From the IMG/VR virus record IMGVR_UViG_3300029431_000015: 35,770 nt of DNA; one strand, 5' to 3'. The notes beneath the pieces were generated by a model. It ran no database searches. It saw only the letters and a program-made list of their open reading frames with translations, and was not told the DNA's origin. This DNA comes from a virus. The translations under genes and the position numbers were made by a program. This document shows, one piece after another, positions 15,417 to 22,777 of the stretch. Every line of letters starts with the position of its first letter. Within the stretch, counting starts at the first letter, position 1.

Positions 15417-15650
15417 TCACAGGTCAAGCCCCTTATCCCTCAGCGACCTTGCGGCATCGCCAAGCCCTCTGTCGAAATCCTCACGGGTCTTGTAGAATGC
15501 ACATCTACGGCAGTAGTCCTTCGTTGGCGTTACTGTCAGCGCACCACACTCGCCAGGATTGACATTTGAATGGAACACGCAAAGGCTTACCGCTCCGCTG
15601 CCGTTGTCAAGGGGCTTGTCCCTCTTAAATACCTCTCTCATCACTATCAT
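15417..15650 (-). CDS. Hypothetical small Cys-containing protein (77 aa)
   Basis: ATG at 15650 (MIVMREVF...) is preceded by AAGGAGGA. The longer track ORF is an unsupported 5' extension inside the upstream gene. Confidence 0.6.
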   Translation of the reverse strand: MIVMREVFKRDKPLDNGSGAVSLCVFHSNVNPGECGALTVTPTKDYCRRCAFYKTREDFDRGLGDAARSLRDKGLDL

Positions 15651-16332
15651 CGTTATCCTCCTTAATATTTCCCCATTGTTCAGCCATTGCTTGTGCGATG
15701 CCTGAAAATGTTTTGGACTTTGTCTTGCTGTCACGAAACGACATTCCGCAGTTTGTGCGTGCAGTGCCGTCCGCCTTTTTGCTACCGCCTGACACCCATG
15801 AACATATGGGTTTAACAATATTTGTCGGTGTCAATTTAGGCAGATTTTTCAGCCACAAACACGTTTTTTTACTGTATGGGTGTCCGTATTCATATGGTTG
15901 TATAGTCTGCGTATATTTCGGCAACTCGAACACCTTTGACGGTATCGGGTTTTCAATAGCTATTTTCTCAACAGGTGCATGAATAAATTTCAGAAAAAAT
16001 TCTTTTGCGTCTTTTCCTTTTTTGAATCTTTCAAAATCAATGTAGCTTTTTCCATTAATTTTTTTGTGCAGGCGTGCTGCTCCTGCGTTGCTAAGATATG
16101 TACACGGTGGGTGTGCGATAATCATATCCCATGTTTCAACAGTATGCTGCTTGCCGTCACAGGTGAAGAAATCGGTATTGCCATTGATAATATCCAAAAC
16201 ATCATTGCATATATGCCATTCAGGGTGACCGCCTGAACACATCTGAATGTCGCAGCTATATGCTTCGTGTCCTTTCGCACGGAACGCTTTGCAGACCTCT
16301 TGAGATTCCTCACAGGCTATCAGAACTTTCAT
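15625..16332 (-). CDS. DNA (cytosine-5) methyltransferase-like protein (atypical)
   Basis: AHPPCTYLS is motif IV-like (PC) and AIENP is motif VI-like (ENV). No FxGxG SAM-binding motif occurs at the N-terminus (MKVLIACEESQ). The start at ATG 16332 follows GAGGAGG. Confidence 0.5.
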   Translation of the reverse strand: MKVLIACEESQEVCKAFRAKGHEAYSCDIQMCSGGHPEWHICNDVLDIINGNTDFFTCDGKQHTVETWDMIIAHPPCTYLSNAGAARLHKKINGKSYIDFERFKKGKDAKEFFLKFIHAPVEKIAIENPIPSKVFELPKYTQTIQPYEYGHPYSKKTCLWLKNLPKLTPTNIVKPICSWVSGGSKKADGTARTNCGMSFRDSKTKSKTFSGIAQAMAEQWGNIKEDNDDSDERGI

Positions 16333-16462
16333 CGTTTTCGTCCTCCTCTTTCTCAAAACCTTTCTCCCAGTGCCTATCCACCACGCTCAGCACAAGATAC
16401 ATCACTACATCTATCCCTGCAAGCACAGCTATTGTTATCAGCAGTATTCCTACAATGTTCAT
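16310..16462 (-). CDS. Small membrane protein (50 aa), not in the ORF track
   Basis: The translation is MNIVGILLITIAVLAGIDVVMYLVLSVVDRHWEKGFEKEEDENDESSDSL. Its ATG overlaps the upstream stop (TAATG). Confidence 0.5.
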   Translation of the reverse strand: MNIVGILLITIAVLAGIDVVMYLVLSVVDRHWEKGFEKEEDENDESSDSL

Positions 16463-17477: not shown

Positions 17478-17569
17478 CACTTTGTTGCTAAATTAAATAA
17501 ATTTGTGAGTTTTCAATAAATTCAGACAACAATTTGATGACACTATTGACAAGTCAACAGAAAGTTGAT
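17472..17569. promoter_or_regulatory. Operator-like imperfect inverted repeats of the immunity switch
   Basis: GTCAACA-N4-GTTG(A) units lie at about 17472..17488 and 17553..17569, and a weaker one at about 17524..17541. They overlap the -35 of the cro promoter and the spacer of the repressor promoter. Confidence 0.55.
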
Positions 17570-17574
17570 ATAAT
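17546..17574 (+). promoter_or_regulatory. Repressor promoter, exact TTGACA-17-TATAAT
   Basis: TTGACA at 17546..17551 and TATAAT at 17569..17574. Confidence 0.75.
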
Positions 17575-17601
17575 TTAATCAATGACAAGGAGTTGAAAAA
17601 T

Positions 17602-17934
17602 ATGTATAACGATATATTAAGACAGCTAAGAAACGAAAAAGGAGTATCTCAACAGGTTGTAGCTGATTATCTTAATATCACTAAACAGGCATACAGTTTG
17701 TATGAATTAGGAAAGCGAGAGCCTGATTTTGAAACATTATTGAAATTAGGTGAATACTTTGACGTTTCCACCGATTATATTCTCAGGGGTGAAAAGACCG
17801 AAGACGACACCGATGATAACATCAAGTTCGCCCTATGGGGAACATCAGACGTTGATGATGATGTGTTGGCAGATGTAAAACATTACGCTCAGATAGCACG
17901 TCAGATGAGAGAGGATAAAAAGAACAAAGAATAG
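17602..17934 (+). CDS. XRE-family phage repressor (CI/ImmR-like)
   Basis: HTH_3 pattern VSQQVVADYLNITKQAYSLYELGKREP. ATG at 17602 lies 9 nt after AAGGAG. The track start at 17593 is a TTG abutting the RBS. Confidence 0.8.
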   Translation: MYNDILRQLRNEKGVSQQVVADYLNITKQAYSLYELGKREPDFETLLKLGEYFDVSTDYILRGEKTEDDTDDNIKFALWGTSDVDDDVLADVKHYAQIARQMREDKKNKE

Positions 17935-17945
17935 AGGCGGTACAT

Positions 17946-18359
17946 ATGGATAGTGCTGAACTACGCAGCTTTGCGGAGGACAGGGACATTATAGTTATCG
18001 ACGGAAAATTAAGAAATGAGCAGAAGTCCATATCCATTAGCGATAGAGGGCAATGTGCGATTGTGGTAGACCCTAAGAAAATCGCCACGAGAGCAGAAGA
18101 AACTGTCATAATGGCTCACGAGCTGGGGCATTGTGAAACAGGTGCATTTTATAACGAAAGAACGCTGGAGCTTCGTTCTCGAATGGAGTTTCGTGCGGAT
18201 AAATGGGCAATAAAAAAGCTCGTCACAGAGGACGAGCTGATAGAAGCATTTGAAAATGGTATCCTTGAAATATGGGAACTTGCCGAGTTCTTCGGTGTGA
18301 CCGAAGATTTTATGGTCAAGGTCTGTGAATTGTACGGATATTATAACAGGGTGATATAA
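17946..18359 (+). CDS. ImmA/IrrE-family metallopeptidase (anti-repressor protease)
   Basis: It has an HEXXH motif (MAHELGHC). At 137 aa it lies immediately downstream of the XRE repressor, as in ImmR/ImmA modules. Confidence 0.8.
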   Translation: MDSAELRSFAEDRDIIVIDGKLRNEQKSISISDRGQCAIVVDPKKIATRAEETVIMAHELGHCETGAFYNERTLELRSRMEFRADKWAIKKLVTEDELIEAFENGILEIWELAEFFGVTEDFMVKVCELYGYYNRVI

Positions 18360-18426
18360 AAAAAGTCCCTGTCAGCACCGCAAATACTGGCAGGGATAAC
18401 ACACAGAAATTTTTCTGTATGGTTAC
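18357..18426 (-). ncRNA. Candidate small RNA A (about 68 nt), an orphan promoter-to-terminator unit
   Basis: It lies downstream of the 18461..18433 promoter. It contains the hairpin ACAGAAA-AA-UUUCUGU and a terminator UCCCUGCCAG-N11-CUGACAGGGA followed by CUUUUUUU. There is no ORF. Confidence 0.4.
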
Positions 18427-18432
18427 AAATAC

Positions 18433-18461
18433 ATTATATCACCAATTTAAGACATTGTAAA
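18433..18461 (-). promoter_or_regulatory. Promoter TTTACA-17-TATAAT with a TG extended -10
   Basis: On the minus strand TTTACA lies at 18461..18456 and TGATATAAT ends at 18433. Confidence 0.45.
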
Positions 18462-18511
18462 TGATTTCAATAAATTGTTTACAAAAGTCGGTTTATAGGG
18501 AGGAAAAAAAT

Positions 18512-18904
18512 ATGACTTGTCCAAATTGTAAAGGCGAAAACGCACCAGGCGTAGCAGTATGTGAATATTGCGGTCACGAACTGCCGCAGCCGCAGAAAAT
18601 TGATAACCACGTTGAGCATAACAGCAATATCGTTCAGCACATCACATACGTTACAAACGTCCAGCAGGTCGCACCGCAAGCTCCTGTTGAGCAGATAAGC
18701 CCTAAGAGCAAAAGCACAGCTGAAATACTTTGCCTGCTGACCTTTTTAGGCTTGGGTGGTTTGAACAGATTTTATGTAGGCAAAGCTGGCACAGGTTTGC
18801 TGTACTTCTTTACTTTCGGAGGTTTCTTTATTGGAGCAATAGTTGATATGATAAATTTGTTTCAGGGAAACTTCACTGACGCTCAGGGCAGAGTGTTAAA
18901 ATAA
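18512..18904 (+). CDS. Zinc-ribbon plus TM2-domain membrane protein
   Basis: The N-terminus has CPNC...CEYC. The C-terminus LCLLTFLGLGGLNRFYVGKAGTGLLYFFTFGGFFIGAIVD is a typical TM2 domain. ATG at 18512 follows GGGAGG. Confidence 0.75.
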   Translation: MTCPNCKGENAPGVAVCEYCGHELPQPQKIDNHVEHNSNIVQHITYVTNVQQVAPQAPVEQISPKSKSTAEILCLLTFLGLGGLNRFYVGKAGTGLLYFFTFGGFFIGAIVDMINLFQGNFTDAQGRVLK

Positions 18905-18947
18905 AATCCCCTGCTGATACTTCAAATATCAATTAGGAGAAACGTAT

Positions 18948-19976
18948 ATGGGTAAAAAGAAACGCAAATCAGAGCCAGGCTGCATTGCCACTATATTCGG
19001 CTACACAATATTAGCTTGTATTGTATTTACTATTTTTAATTTAGCCAAAACACATCTCTCTACTAAAGCCAAAATAATCATTTTATCGGTTATTGGCATA
19101 CTTCTTATTCTCAAAATATTCGGATTTTTTAATCGAAAATATACAATGTCTCAGCTTGATAATATGGAAGGTCATAGATTCGAATTTGCTTGTGCTGATA
19201 TCTTGAAGATGAACGGCTTTTATGACGTAAAAGTTACACAAGGCTCTGGAGACTATGGCGTCGACATTATTGCAAGAAAAGGTATGCGAAAATATGCTAT
19301 ACAATGTAAATGCTATAGCCACAAACTTGACAATAAACCTATACAAGAAGTAATTGGCGGACTTGCATATTATGGTTGTAATAAAGGCGTTGTTATGACA
19401 AATCAATACTTTACTGAGCCGGCAAAACAGTTAGCAAAAGTTAATGGAATAGAGCTATGGGACAGAAATGTTTTGTCTCATATGACCAAAAGAACAAGCA
19501 AAATAAAAATGCGTCTCAAAAAGGAAGAGCATTTACAAGAGCATAATCCTTCTTCCAAAGCAAAGCAACCAGTTACCGAAACCAACAGCTTTCAAATTTA
19601 TTCTACCCCTAAATATGCAGAAAAAGCTACAATGATGAATGACCTTGATGATTACCCCCGTATTTGTAAAAAGTTCATGAAAGAAAATGCCGAATATATA
19701 GTCTGCTACTATAAAACGACTTTTGATGTAGTTCTAAAATTAGAAAAGATAGATGTTTTATACAAGCAAAATTCAGTTTCATTCGAGTTCTTGCATACGC
19801 CGCAACTTCCTGTAAGCAAGCTAAAAAAGTCGCTTAAAGACTTATCAGAATACATAAGCATTGATAATATTTCATTGCATTCATCTTGCACTACTCCTGG
19901 CTGCTTTGCAATACAAATGCCAATGCCTGATTACTTGGCTAAAACATCCAGGTTTATTGATAAAAATAGTAAATAA
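18948..19976 (+). CDS. Membrane-anchored Mrr_cat-type restriction endonuclease-like protein with an uncharacterised C-terminal domain
   Basis: It has two N-terminal hydrophobic helices. The nuclease core is FEFACADILKMNGF...GSGDYGVDIIA...AIQCKCY (D...QxK). A further 150 aa or so are of unknown function. Confidence 0.7.
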   Translation: MGKKKRKSEPGCIATIFGYTILACIVFTIFNLAKTHLSTKAKIIILSVIGILLILKIFGFFNRKYTMSQLDNMEGHRFEFACADILKMNGFYDVKVTQGSGDYGVDIIARKGMRKYAIQCKCYSHKLDNKPIQEVIGGLAYYGCNKGVVMTNQYFTEPAKQLAKVNGIELWDRNVLSHMTKRTSKIKMRLKKEEHLQEHNPSSKAKQPVTETNSFQIYSTPKYAEKATMMNDLDDYPRICKKFMKENAEYIVCYYKTTFDVVLKLEKIDVLYKQNSVSFEFLHTPQLPVSKLKKSLKDLSEYISIDNISLHSSCTTPGCFAIQMPMPDYLAKTSRFIDKNSK

Positions 19977-20086
19977 AAAATCTCGCCCCCAAGTGCTACC
20001 AACACTCAGAGGCGAGCAGAGCGGATACTACCAATATCAGCTCAAAAATTCACACCCAAACTAGTTAATAAAGGGCGAATTCTGCC
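19977..20086 (-). ncRNA. Candidate small RNA B (about 105 nt), an orphan promoter-to-terminator unit
   Basis: It lies downstream of the 20120..20092 promoter. It ends at a 14-bp hairpin (19981..20015) followed by AUUUUUUAUUU on the minus strand. No RBS or ORF is present. Confidence 0.45.
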
Positions 20087-20096
20087 CTTTTATTGT
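20070..20096 (+). terminator. Intrinsic terminator after the Mrr-like gene
   Basis: AAGGGC-GAATTCT-GCCCTT is followed by TTATTG. Confidence 0.5.
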
Positions 20097-20120
20097 AGCA
20101 CACTTTCTAGGAAGTGTCAA
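20092..20120 (-). promoter_or_regulatory. Promoter TTGACA-17-TACAAT with a TG extended -10, divergent from and overlapping the int RBS region
   Basis: On the minus strand TTGACA lies at 20120..20115 and TGCTACAAT ends at 20092. Confidence 0.5.
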
Positions 20121-20135
20121 GAATAGGAGGAATAT

Positions 20136-21317
20136 ATGCTATGTAAAAAATGCCGTAAGGAAATTCCTGACGGCTCTATTTATTGCAACTACTGTGGCAA
20201 GAAGCAGGAAACTACCAAAAGAAAAACACGTCGCAGAGCAAGAGGAACAGGCACGATAAGATACAAGCCTGAATACAAAAACCGCCCATATGTGGTTTTC
20301 AGCCCTCGAACAACGTCCGGCACAGGTGAAAAGTACATCGGCTGCTTCAAAACGGCAGCAGAGGCACAAGCCGCACTTGATAGTTACTTCAACTCTACGC
20401 ACATAGATCACTCCAGCCTAACTCTTGCACAAGCGTATGAGAATTGGAGTTCCGAGCATTTTGAAAGCCTTACAAAGAGTGGTGAGCAGGGCTACAAGAC
20501 CGCATGGAGATACCTTGATAGTATCGCAGGCAGGAAGATGTCAGAGCTTAAAACAGCAGATTATCAGAGGTGCATAACCGAATGTGCCAAACGTTTCAGC
20601 CGTTCGCAATGTGCAAAAATCAAGCAGCTATGCTCACAGCTCTGTAAGTACGCCGCCCAAAATGACATCATAGACAAAAACTATGCTGAATACATAACAC
20701 TTCCAAAAGAGGTTAAGAAAGAGAAAAGAATTTTTACAGCGGAAGAGCTTGAAAAGCTGTGGAAACACTCTTCGGATAGATCTGTCCAAGTCATTTTGTT
20801 TATGATCTACACAGGCTTTCGTATCGGTGAGGTGTTCACGATACTTAAAAAGAATGTCCACCTTGCCGAGAACTACATGATCGGCGGCATCAAGACCGAA
20901 GCGGGCAAGGACAGACTTGTGCCGTTTCCGTCACAGATACCCGAAATAAAGACGTTTGTACAAGATTGGTACAATGAAAGCAAGACAGATTTTTTGCTGA
21001 ATGGAGATGTAAACAATTTCAGAAAACGCAATTTTTACCCTGCACTTGCCGAATGCGGTGTGATACCTGAGCCGACAGTTACAGAGCTAAAAAGCGGCAA
21101 AACGACAAAGAAATATGACACAGAGATAACGCCACATTGTTGCCGTCACACTTTCGCCACCCTCTCAGCAGATTGCGGTATGCAGCCCGAAAAATTACAA
21201 CGTATCATCGGTCATGCCAAGTATGAAACAACGGCAGATATATACAATCACTCAGGGCAGGACGCAAAAGCACTAGCGGAAGAAATGTCAAAGTTAAGAA
21301 AGCCAGTGGAACATTAG
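20136..21317 (+). CDS. int: Tyrosine integrase with an N-terminal zinc ribbon
   Basis: The C-terminal catalytic region is HCCRHTFATL...GHAKYETTADIYNH (R, HxxR, Y). RBS AGGAGG. The N-terminus has CKKC...CNYC. Confidence 0.9.
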   Translation: MLCKKCRKEIPDGSIYCNYCGKKQETTKRKTRRRARGTGTIRYKPEYKNRPYVVFSPRTTSGTGEKYIGCFKTAAEAQAALDSYFNSTHIDHSSLTLAQAYENWSSEHFESLTKSGEQGYKTAWRYLDSIAGRKMSELKTADYQRCITECAKRFSRSQCAKIKQLCSQLCKYAAQNDIIDKNYAEYITLPKEVKKEKRIFTAEELEKLWKHSSDRSVQVILFMIYTGFRIGEVFTILKKNVHLAENYMIGGIKTEAGKDRLVPFPSQIPEIKTFVQDWYNESKTDFLLNGDVNNFRKRNFYPALAECGVIPEPTVTELKSGKTTKKYDTEITPHCCRHTFATLSADCGMQPEKLQRIIGHAKYETTADIYNHSGQDAKALAEEMSKLRKPVEH

Positions 21318-21610: not shown

Positions 21611-22039
21611 TCAAGCTTCATCATCCGTAACATCAGTCGAATCAACAAATTCACATGGTGTTAGTAGCGGTGGCATAAATGCCGCTTTCGTTAATTGTGA
21701 AATAACAAAAACAGATTCTGCGATTGAAGTAAAACATAAAGTATTAATTTCCTCGTTATTCCAATTATCGATTTTTTCAACTAATTGCGGAAAATTTTCT
21801 TCTTTAATATCCCATGAAACTAAATATTCAACTGTAATAGCAAAAAGCTGCGGTGGATTCATTGAAATATTTCTGGAAAATACAACTAATAATTTATCAC
21901 CTGATTTACTGAGTTTAGAATGAAAATTATCTGCTACATCAACATTTAATTCATCATTTTCAGTATCTGTTGGTAAGGACTTATATTCAATTTTTTTGAG
22001 AGACAGCTGCGGATTGCTTATAATTTCCTGTAAAACCAT
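21611..22039 (-). CDS. SecB-like chaperone candidate (142 aa, acidic C-terminus)
   Basis: ATG at 22039 follows GGAGGTG. The C-terminal region ISQLTKAAFMPPLLTPCEF parallels E. coli SecB [20 protein letters not shown]. The N-terminal LSLKKIEYKSL parallels FQIQRIYTKDI. It has an acidic tail. The alignment was done by eye only. Confidence 0.5.
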   Translation of the reverse strand: MVLQEIISNPQLSLKKIEYKSLPTDTENDELNVDVADNFHSKLSKSGDKLLVVFSRNISMNPPQLFAITVEYLVSWDIKEENFPQLVEKIDNWNNEEINTLCFTSIAESVFVISQLTKAAFMPPLLTPCEFVDSTDVTDDEA

Positions 22040-22529
22040 TAAATACACCTCCGTTATATGACAAAAAAGTTCTATGACCAACCATTGATCTACTTGTGTT
22101 AACTTTTTCAAAAGCTCTTTCTATATTGGCGGCCTTACAACCTACGGAAAGTACCGGAGAATACATTTTTAAACACTCACTAAATCCGCTTGCTTTTCCT
22201 ACAAATTTACTAAGAGCCAAGTTGATACATTGGTTAATGCTAACGCCCTCAATAATTGAAAGTTCAGCAATTTCACGATGCAAAGACTTTGGTATTCTCA
22301 GTAAAATTTTGCCGCTATATTCAATATTTTTAGTAACGATTTCTTCTGGAATTGGTATGCCATACTTTTTTGAAGTTTTAATGCACTCCTGCTCCAATTC
22401 TTCAAAAAGCTTTAATGCTTCATCTACAGTTTCGCCTTGAGCCACGCAACCTTTTAAGCATTTGCTCTTAATACAATAGAACTCGTGCCCCTCAACTTCC
22501 ATTTTTTGAACATCAAATCCATATCTCAT
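21987..22529 (-). CDS. hicB: HicB-family antitoxin with a C-terminal extension of about 65 aa
   Basis: It has an N-terminal HicB-like domain and an RHH segment, GKILLRIPKSLHREIAELSIIEGVSINQCINLAL. The 4-nt overlap with hicA is typical. The extension overlaps the next gene by 53 nt. Confidence 0.75.
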   Translation of the reverse strand: MRYGFDVQKMEVEGHEFYCIKSKCLKGCVAQGETVDEALKLFEELEQECIKTSKKYGIPIPEEIVTKNIEYSGKILLRIPKSLHREIAELSIIEGVSINQCINLALSKFVGKASGFSECLKMYSPVLSVGCKAANIERAFEKVNTSRSMVGHRTFLSYNGGVFNGFTGNYKQSAAVSQKN

Positions 22530-22777
22530 GTTAATTCCTCCCTTATCATATCAAGCAAATCCTTCAACTGCTTTATGTAAACCTCGCCAACACATTTTCC
22601 GTGTTTTGGAACGGGTATTACATAACCTAATTTAGGATAAACAATTTTGGGATGATTTCCACCACTATCTAAAATACAACCGAAATGCGTCATTACACTA
22701 ACTACTTCATCGAACGTTATATCATTAGGTATAGGTTTATTATAAAACTTTTTCATTGCCTTATCAATTTTTGACAA
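22526..22777 (-). CDS. hicA: HicA-family mRNA interferase toxin
   Basis: It is 83 aa with the HicA-like pattern ...GCILDSGGNHPKIVYP...VPVPKHGK. It is translationally coupled to hicB. The start is TTG 22777 or ATG 22756. Confidence 0.7.
   Translation of the reverse strand: MSKIDKAMKKFYNKPIPNDITFDEVVSVMTHFGCILDSGGNHPKIVYPKLGYVIPVPKHGKCVGEVYIKQLKDLLDMIREELT

Follow-up and report, generated by a model that had tools for sequence, protein, structure and literature searches.

What do two small genes do between the immunity genes and the integrase of a temperate phage, and do they work together? The question is raised by positions 18512-19976 of IMG/VR virus record IMGVR_UViG_3300029431_000015, a stretch of 35,770 nucleotides (nt) that was analysed whole and is called here the window. 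The first gene (gene 1) encodes a membrane protein of 130 amino acids (aa) that combines a zinc ribbon with a TM2 domain, and the second (gene 2) a membrane-tethered Mrr-like nuclease of 342 aa. An original prediction, made from the sequence without database searches, had regarded both as cargo of the lysogeny module and had suggested that the nuclease is paired with the small membrane protein in superinfection exclusion or abortive infection. We consider gene 2 to be a single-gene, membrane-tethered defence nuclease expressed in lysogens and the two cargo genes to be independently mobile, a combined reading to which we give about an even chance. Gene 2 is probably an uncharacterised anti-phage defence.

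Gene 2 (18948-19976, plus strand), studied as an open reading frame (ORF) with Pfam and with AlphaFold2 (AF2) models, is preceded by an AGGAG ribosome-binding site and has a G+C content of 0.339, an equally low value being found in 14 of 695 windows of the same length. Its N-terminal part is a transmembrane (TM) hairpin at residues about 9-61 (18972-19130), where AF2 placed helices at 11-36 and 39-61 and hydrophobic windows began at residues 9 and 36. A Mrr_cat core of the PD-(D/E)XK type follows at residues 70-179 (19155-19484; Pfam PF04471, E 7.3e-32, 110.3 bits against a cut-off of 21), and residues 67-184 make up the nuclease core in the full-length AF2 model. The protein contains the motifs GDYGVDIIA and AIQCK, and its place in the Mrr_cat family is given by the domain match plus the acidic residues and the lysine of the (E/Q)xK motif. 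The catalytic residues E79, D102, D106, Q119 and K121 were invariant in all 78 distinct domain sequences from relatives, and the core cysteines C82 and C120 were also invariant. As the catalytic residues do not vary among the homologues, the nuclease is probably active. The two N-terminal helices and the Mrr_cat core had been correctly recognised in the original prediction, whose proposal of a working nuclease would have lost its ground had these residues not been conserved. The same prediction described both genes as low in G+C; this was right for gene 2 and wrong for gene 1, whose value of 0.44 is level with the window mean of 0.45.

Mrr_N was not detected in gene 2 by Pfam (E up to 0.1), and the TM hairpin stands in the N-terminal place. 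The earlier impression that this is not a named defence system was supported by PADLOC, which gave matches at the level of the nuclease domain only (ZorD, PDC-S02, LmuA and mREase_IV). Structural matches of the core obtained with Foldseek were MspJI, AspBHI, Can2 and the nuclease domain of Avs4. Nothing useful was found in NCBIfam for the protein of gene 1 or that of gene 2, and a megablast search of the GenBank phages returned two short unannotated faecal contigs only. Regarding topology, gene 2 has a KKKRK stretch at the N-terminus and R63/K64 following helix 2, and in relatives with one TM helix a K/R cluster is positioned after that helix. According to this distribution of charges, both ends of the anchor are predicted to be cytoplasmic and the nuclease would face the cytoplasm.

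The approximately 150 C-terminal residues had been taken originally for a single domain that could not be assigned. They proved not to be one domain, since residues 184-220 (19497-19607) are a disordered basic and polar linker, with a predicted local distance difference test score (pLDDT) <50 in AF2, and residues 221-341 (19608-19970) are folded. The position of the linker is occupied in the relatives P0011 and P0017 by an FtsK gamma domain (FtsK_gamma, 2e-20 and 2.8e-22, respectively). The AF2 model of the C-terminal domain alone reached a pLDDT of 88.9 and a predicted TM-score (pTM) of 0.80, and the domain was confidently folded in the full-length model too. When these residues were searched with Foldseek, as had been proposed, the FtsK motor 6t8b_A ranked first among PDB structures, with an E-value of 1.9e-4, a TM-score of 0.62 (normalised to the query) and a root-mean-square deviation (rmsd) of 1.9 Å over 88 columns. 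The next matches were 2iut and 2ius, followed by the FtsK-like conjugation coupling protein TcpA (6o1z, TM-score 0.50), and the next fold class consisted of sandwiches of the ribosomal S24e/S6 type with a TM-score of about 0.3 and an rmsd of 6-12 Å. Pfam FtsK_alpha matched the homologous domain of L033 with 25.0 bits, above the cut-off of 22.9, and those of P0130, L039 and P0017 below it (22.7, 19.2 and 17.3 bits, respectively); in the relatives the matches always covered the C-terminal half of the model, and on the window domain itself no FtsK_alpha match was obtained. Sequence comparisons weigh against the assignment: no meaningful match emerged when PDB sequences were searched with a profile of the C-terminal domain, and hhalign of the domain profile with the genuine FtsK alpha of L099 was in register and not significant (probability 1.5%, E 0.033). 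As these tests are weak, the label FtsK-alpha-like rests on the fold and on weak Pfam matches, and it becomes much more credible because all the FtsK modules were found fused to one Mrr clade. We therefore describe the domain as FtsK-alpha-like by its modelled fold, with marginal support from sequence. This variant is rare, as phmmer, run exhaustively against 1.84 billion representatives, produced 10 matches, all of them Mrr fusions or fragments, and the word-indexed search recovered one fragment with the C-terminal domain alone and seven proteins with a 9-sequence profile.

Among the candidates collected by word-indexed search, 685 proteins were related to the nuclease at E <= 0.001, and nuclease relatives were encoded on 204 IMG/VR viral contigs. 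They combine the same elements in different orders. The arrangement TM-Mrr-alpha is that of the window, P0002, P0006, P0010 and the very abundant 290-aa Ruminococcus allele P0100; TM-Mrr-gamma was found in P0012, L037 and L089, TM-Mrr-gamma-alpha in P0011 and P0017, TM-gamma-Mrr in L049 and the L164 and L170 types, and gamma-Mrr-TM in L070. Forms of the TM-gamma-Mrr and TM-Mrr-gamma types are numerous, and the gamma domain was recorded in P0011, P0012, P0017, L037, L049, L070 and the L164 and L170 types. In L059 (3965-5596) the nuclease is joined to an FtsK_SpoIIIE motor (1.2e-48) and gamma (1.4e-22), and in L099 (2729-4396) FtsK_alpha (1.9e-18) and FtsK_SpoIIIE (9.4e-47) precede Mrr. The L099 protein is thus a full FtsK motor-nuclease chimera with Mrr_cat in the place of gamma, and the L059 chimera sits between HTH/ImmA genes and a tyrosine integrase. 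The RecA-like P-loop motor (beta, PF01580), carried by L059 and L099 as the only relatives, and the gamma winged helix (PF09397) were both absent from the window protein according to Pfam. Our literature search did not find descriptions of motor-nuclease chimeras like these two, nor a study of Mrr-FtsK-module fusions or of the prophage nuclease gene.

Small TM-Mrr proteins (145-200 aa) that lack FtsK modules are encoded on the chromosome, and in 40 of 43 neither a repressor nor a recombinase was a neighbour; for this reason the FtsK-derived modules can be considered a signature of the prophage-borne forms. Two chromosomal cases in Butyrivibrio (L077, 3890-5167, and L104, 4016-5274) are one-helix TM-Mrr_cat proteins of about 150 aa in a conserved neighbourhood, in which the gene for an OGG-type 8-oxoguanine DNA glycosylase comes directly after the nuclease, with a 3-nt gap or a 4-nt overlap, and is translationally coupled to it. 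This suggests that glycosylase and nuclease work as a pair, either in repair or in a defence directed at modified bases. A further group, L170 and 20 similar IMG/VR loci (L168-L188), encodes a 271-aa protein with TM, gamma-like and Mrr_cat parts after a 722-aa minus-strand gene. No repressor or recombinase was detected near the L170-type loci, whose viral context is unannotated, and this context indicates that the nuclease family is not confined to the interval between repressor and integrase.

What is conserved in many unrelated Clostridia prophages is the position of the nuclease gene, which comes directly after the repressor and before the recombinase; in all the prophage contexts examined it lay close behind the immunity gene. 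Its start often lies 10-55 bp past the stop codon of the repressor or ImmA gene and ahead of a tyrosine (Tyr) or serine (Ser) recombinase (L001-L015, L031, L033, L035, L037, L041, L059, L070, L089 and L090). The immunity gene upstream is an S24 CI-like repressor or a helix-turn-helix (HTH) protein plus ImmA, zero to two further cargo genes separate the nuclease from the recombinase, and the recombinase itself is a serine recombinase in some prophages and one of several mutually unrelated tyrosine integrases in others. This layout was found again in the isolated Roseburia phage Jekyll, whose record names the gene no further than 'putative restriction endonuclease'. In a census of TM-Mrr-alpha loci, a repressor-type gene was present within three genes upstream (<=3) in 64 of 68, and a recombinase within three genes downstream in 54 of the 68, most exceptions being truncated contigs. 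In related prophages the same slot holds TM2 only, Mrr only or both, and its other occupants are GIY-YIG-like, TPR, DUF898, LRR_5+fn3, zinc-ribbon+DUF4352 (a 212-aa protein of L049), RNase_T+BRCT, bPH and HslV-like proteins. The two genes are thereby lysogeny-module cargo in the usual meaning, being located on the same strand between immunity genes and recombinase and varying in presence among related prophages. The original prediction had spoken of a classical cargo position, and the varied occupants identify the slot as a cargo hot spot. It had also located the genes properly, as Pfam found HTH_3 and ImmA/Peptidase_M78 proteins upstream of both and a tyrosine integrase downstream.

Gene 1 (18512-18904, plus strand; ORF, Pfam TM2 4.9e-14) has a strong ribosome-binding site, GGGAGG, 8 nt before its ATG. 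The zinc ribbon predicted for it is visible at residues 1-25 (18512-18586) as C3xxC6...C17xxC20, and the Pfam zinc-ribbon models stayed below their gathering cut-offs (Zn_ribbon_3, 22.5 bits versus 27). The TM2 domain, predicted as well, lies at residues 64-114 (18701-18853), and its score of 52.7 bits against PF05154 exceeds the gathering cut-off of 27.9 and places gene 1 in this family. The profile phrog_10292, of unknown function, matched residues 1-114 (1e-14) and thus spans ribbon and TM2. The TM2-domain family has no established function (PMC3861447) and, as consequence, membership says little about the role of gene 1. PADLOC gave no match for gene 1, and a functional study of TM2 proteins in phages was not found in the literature. 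Gene 1 is a second, separable membrane cargo and possibly an exclusion factor in its own right.

Whether the two genes form a system was evaluated from their distribution. One strand carries both, with 43 bp between them, and one may imagine the TM2 protein as sensor, pore or anchor of the nuclease in an obligate two-gene system. The tandem recurs in 17 of the 47 close IMG/VR contigs, where it occurs within one Ruminococcus-type phage group with either of two Mrr alleles (of 342 or 290 aa) and with three types of repressor, and the exact window nuclease was accompanied by TM2 in all seven loci listed. Against an obligate system, the remaining 30 of these contigs have Mrr alone, as do L001-L015, and P0001, a nuclease 98% identical to that of the window, comes directly after the repressor without a TM2 gene. 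No TM2 homologue was found within 4 kb of the nuclease in any of 80 loci from species-representative genomes. Conversely, in the eight loci listed (L016-L023) the exact TM2 protein was encoded by the only gene that separates an S24 repressor from a serine recombinase. It was indexed in 12,181 collection blocks, compared with 75 for the nuclease of the window in its exact form and 1,130 for its 290-aa counterpart allele. Either gene alone may occupy the slot at one insertion site: L001 has the nuclease alone at the site of the TM2-only prophages, with Mn-catalase, VTT and sortase genes as neighbours. At DNA level, the TM2 cassette and its 150-bp upstream region are nearly identical in the window and the TM2-only prophages, the identity ends about 12 bp past the TM2 stop codon, and what comes next in those prophages is the hairpin element that the window has behind its nuclease gene (19977-20095). 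This alignment break and the shared element mean that the nuclease ORF, with its own G+C content, is a discrete insertion of about 1.07 kb. Since each gene occurs alone and the insertion is clean, the two are separable cargo and not an obligate system, for which we see very little chance. The pairing of the nuclease with a small membrane protein, which was the core of the original prediction, has consequently to be abandoned, because the two genes are not co-conserved across genomes or prophages. The recurrence of the tandem with mixed alleles and repressors looks like modular shuffling, and TM2 protein and nuclease may have an optional synergy in the phage group where they are often adjacent.

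The function that we propose for gene 2 is defence of the lysogen. The gene would be co-transcribed with the repressor and hence made in lysogens, and the alpha-like domain would grip double-stranded DNA (dsDNA) or oligomerise the protein at the inner face of the membrane, DNA binding being supplied by the gamma domain in those relatives carrying it. The nuclease might then cut DNA appearing at the membrane, that is, incoming phage or other foreign DNA, which would amount to exclusion; alternatively, a membrane or infection trigger could lead it to cut all DNA, as in abortive infection. By either route the lysogen and its resident prophage would be protected. The interval between repressor and integrase is the classical slot for exclusion genes in Gram-positive temperate phages. 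Defence is the most parsimonious explanation given this slot, the highly variable accessory domains around an invariant catalytic core, the resemblance of the motor-nuclease fusions of the clade to translocating restriction enzymes, and the fact that Epona, a single protein with TM and Mrr_cat parts, restricts phages. Several points speak against it. Co-transcription with the repressor is deduced from gene spacing only; neither a methyltransferase partner, an immunity gene nor a Mrr_N reader was found, so that the sparing of the host chromosome is not explained; the systems known to PADLOC match gene 2 in the nuclease domain only; database records label the nuclease relatives merely 'restriction endonuclease'; and the chromosomal, OGG-coupled relatives of Butyrivibrio imply that the nuclease clade is not intrinsically devoted to phage defence.

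The same domains could also be at work in the handling of prophage or host DNA, for instance in processing at the membrane or septum with FtsK/SpoIIIE translocases or with Xer or the integrase, in septal DNA clearing, in integration and excision, or in repair. The fused domains are FtsK-derived, the nuclease gene always adjoins a recombinase gene, Mrr_cat is near to Hjc-type resolvases (with weak matches to Hjc and to a RusA PHROG), and the small chromosomal relatives are coupled to the OGG repair glycosylase. FtsK gamma binds polar chromosomal motifs and activates XerD. We nevertheless regard DNA handling as unlikely, since the nuclease is dispensable, being absent from close prophages with the same insertion site and recombinase; the Tyr and Ser recombinases beside it are unrelated; it is gained and lost as other cargo genes are, and its G+C content is foreign; and its variable accessory domains would be typical of conflict genes. 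A particular version, in which FtsK gamma activates the adjacent integrase as it does XerD, was rejected because the window protein has no gamma and the relatives stand beside both Ser and Tyr recombinases. Another idea, which we hold to be improbable, is that these proteins are FtsK mimics, motor-less or occasionally motor-bearing, whose alpha-like and gamma modules would let a tethered nuclease ring or grip dsDNA in passage through or contact with the membrane, or join the hexamer of host FtsK, SpoIIIE or SftA. If it were true, it would be an undescribed exclusion mechanism in which self and non-self are distinguished by confinement at the site of DNA entry and not by modification, and it could explain a Mrr-type enzyme in a phage that methylates its own DNA (methyltransferase at 15625-16356).

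A toxic membrane nuclease might, on the other hand, stabilise the prophage by addiction or spread selfishly by means of the flanking hairpins without benefit to the lysogen. Such a cassette would agree with the clean insertion between conserved intergenic elements of many prophages and with the low G+C of the nuclease gene, and the HicA/HicB-like pair nearby shows that this phage carries addiction-type genes. It is improbable to us, because no conserved antitoxin or immunity partner adjoins the nuclease, and because so wide a distribution with invariant catalytic residues fits selection for function. Least credible, with hardly any chance left to it, is a surface-exposed DNase that degrades extracellular or transforming DNA as a lysogenic-conversion factor, in the manner of streptococcal prophage DNases or of membrane-anchored nucleases of competence and of the cell surface. 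Streptococcus pyogenes prophages do encode secreted DNases, and gene 2 does combine a membrane anchor with a nuclease domain. The KKKRK N-terminus and the R/K residues after helix 2 predict instead that both ends of the anchor are cytoplasmic, and the K/R cluster after the helix of the 1-TM relatives puts their C-terminus inside; in addition, gene 2 has no signal peptide, its core cysteines C82 and C120 are invariant, and all three FtsK modules concerned, gamma, alpha and motor, are cytoplasmic. An extracellular topology was therefore rejected on the charge distribution.

The cassettes are bordered by conserved DNA elements. The region upstream of the TM2 cassette (18360-18511, plus strand), recognised by alignment with L016 and L018, is about 97-99% identical in these prophages despite their different repressor and recombinase. 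It contains a hairpin at about 18367-18397 with a run of A before it on the plus strand, and on the minus strand a promoter-like TTTACA-17-TATAAT with TG at 18461 to 18433. A similar hairpin sequence (ATCCCC...AATACTGACAGGGA) is present on both sides of the TM2 cassette in the TM2-only prophages L016 and L018, and these flanking hairpins may be boundary repeats of the cassette. A second conserved element (19977-20135) separates the cargo slot from the recombinase and comprises a hairpin at 19982-20016 and, on the plus strand, a terminator-like hairpin with a T-run at about 20071-20095. On the minus strand, a promoter-like TTGACA-17-TACAAT with an extended TG was located at 20120 to 20092, and a terminator with a 16-bp stem and a T-run at 20016 to 19982; for the predicted minus-strand RNA of about 115 nt (within 19972-20120), the computed folding energy is -45.6 kcal/mol and the z-score -5.55. 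Rfam revealed no known RNA in the window. The hairpin at 19982-20016 is exact in 20 loci (L001, L004-L006 and L015-L030) with different cargo and with Tyr and Ser recombinases, which marks it as the right-hand boundary of the cargo hot spot. The element at 19972-20120 resembles a small minus-strand transcription unit, perhaps one for an antisense or small RNA with a regulatory role, or else it may act as the recombination boundary of the slot.

Regarding the phage itself, the window is a roughly complete genome of a temperate siphovirus, which encodes portal, large terminase, major head protein, tape measure protein, CHAP lysin and holin, as well as primase/helicase, exonuclease and DNA methyltransferase. 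The rightward lysogeny module spans 17.6-21.3 kb and contains in this order an HTH repressor, an ImmA/M78 protease, the two cargo genes and a tyrosine integrase. The repressor, of the Cro/CI type (17593-17934, plus strand; Pfam HTH_3 2.9e-16), is the first gene of the operon, and a sequence scan identified a perfect TTGACA-17-TATAAT promoter-like site ahead of it at 17546-17574. Its partner, an ImmA/IrrE-type metalloprotease, is encoded at 17946-18359 on the plus strand (Peptidase_M78, 1.1e-06, 28.9 bits against a cut-off of 22). The tyrosine integrase (20136-21317, plus strand; Phage_integrase 1.2e-15) has an N-terminal CxxC...CxxC zinc ribbon (20136-20210), which matched Zn_Ribbon_1 with 24.5 bits, just under the cut-off of 25, and which resembles in form the ribbon of the TM2 protein.

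Outside this module, the DNA methyltransferase at 15625-16356 (minus strand) belongs to the early or replication module, matches phrog_757 (1.2e-59) and contains a PPC motif; its presence together with a Mrr-type nuclease in one phage raises the question of modification dependence and of how self DNA escapes. The region 21987-22777 (minus strand), between the integrase/att region and the lysis genes, encodes a HicB-family antitoxin-like protein (180 aa) and a small upstream HicA-like protein (83 aa), Pfam HicB being recorded on the counterpart in L028, and its G+C content of 0.33-0.35 gives it the appearance of a second cargo region. Prophages of the window type are usually integrated beside gltD/gltB (L024-L027). 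The long bacterial contig L028 (269,855 bp) has the HicB, CHAP and holin genes after the integrase, in the same order as the window, and this arrangement corresponds to a circular or replicative junction or to a tandem prophage.

Little is understood about the prophages of abundant Clostridia of the human gut (Ruminococcus/Hominimerdicola, Roseburia, other Oscillospiraceae and Lachnospiraceae), and the cargo of their lysogeny modules probably shapes the entry of phages and mobile elements into these hosts. The nuclease family described here is common, is annotated just as 'restriction endonuclease' and is absent from PADLOC. A membrane-anchored nuclease with pieces of FtsK suggests that DNA is attacked according to its location and not its modification. 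If confirmed, the proposed defence would add a single-gene, portable type and would offer a rationale for Epona-like TM-nuclease proteins. The independent shuffling of the TM2 and nuclease genes is also a warning against 'systems' inferred from adjacency in one genome.

Compared with known systems, gene 2 shares only the catalytic domain family with Mrr, ZorD, LmuA, some Avs and PDC-S02 (PADLOC ZorD, nuclease region, 2.4e-20). It differs from these Mrr-type effectors in being membrane-tethered and in lacking Mrr_N and a helicase, STAND or SMC partner. Membership of the Mrr type IV enzymes was rejected because Mrr_N is absent, and that of Zorya, Lamassu or PDC-S02 because only the nuclease region was matched (profile positions 937-1063 of 1071 in ZorD and 235-341 of 390 in PDC-S02); ZorABC, LmuB/C and the N-terminal 200 aa of PDC-S02 are not at the locus, whose neighbours are repressor, ImmA, TM2 and integrase genes. 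With FtsK/SpoIIIE and TcpA, gene 2 has in common a membrane anchor with a linker, and their alpha fold is the best structural match of its C-terminal domain. Unlike gene 2, FtsK/SpoIIIE have the ATPase (beta) and gamma, whereas gene 2 has a nuclease in the place of the motor and, with no motor and a marginal alpha-like sequence similarity, falls outside the FtsK family. Sie2009 of Tuc2009 and Ltp of TP-J34 are membrane-associated superinfection-exclusion proteins, expressed from the lysogeny operon, whose genes lie between repressor and integrase; proteins of this type block DNA injection without a nuclease domain. They share the genomic position of gene 2 and are not known to be related to it in sequence.

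The closest named analogue, as judged from its described architecture, would be Epona, a single-gene cassette of the Vibrio cholerae chromosomal integron that encodes Mrr_cat with a two-TM 'holin' domain and is anti-phage when cloned (Darracq et al., bioRxiv 10.1101/2024.07.02.601686). In both cases one polypeptide carries a two-helix membrane domain and Mrr_cat, as AF2 and Pfam found in gene 2, and travels on a platform of shuffling cassettes. The vehicles are different, a Gammaproteobacterial integron cassette for Epona and the lysogeny module of Clostridia prophages for gene 2, and Pfam gave no holin family match for gene 2. Moreover, Epona consists of the holin-like TM part and Mrr_cat only, without an FtsK-alpha or gamma module. 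The general theme, a single-gene nuclease candidate for defence borne by a prophage, is a familiar one, and what is unusual with respect to the known systems is the anatomy of the fusion with FtsK modules.

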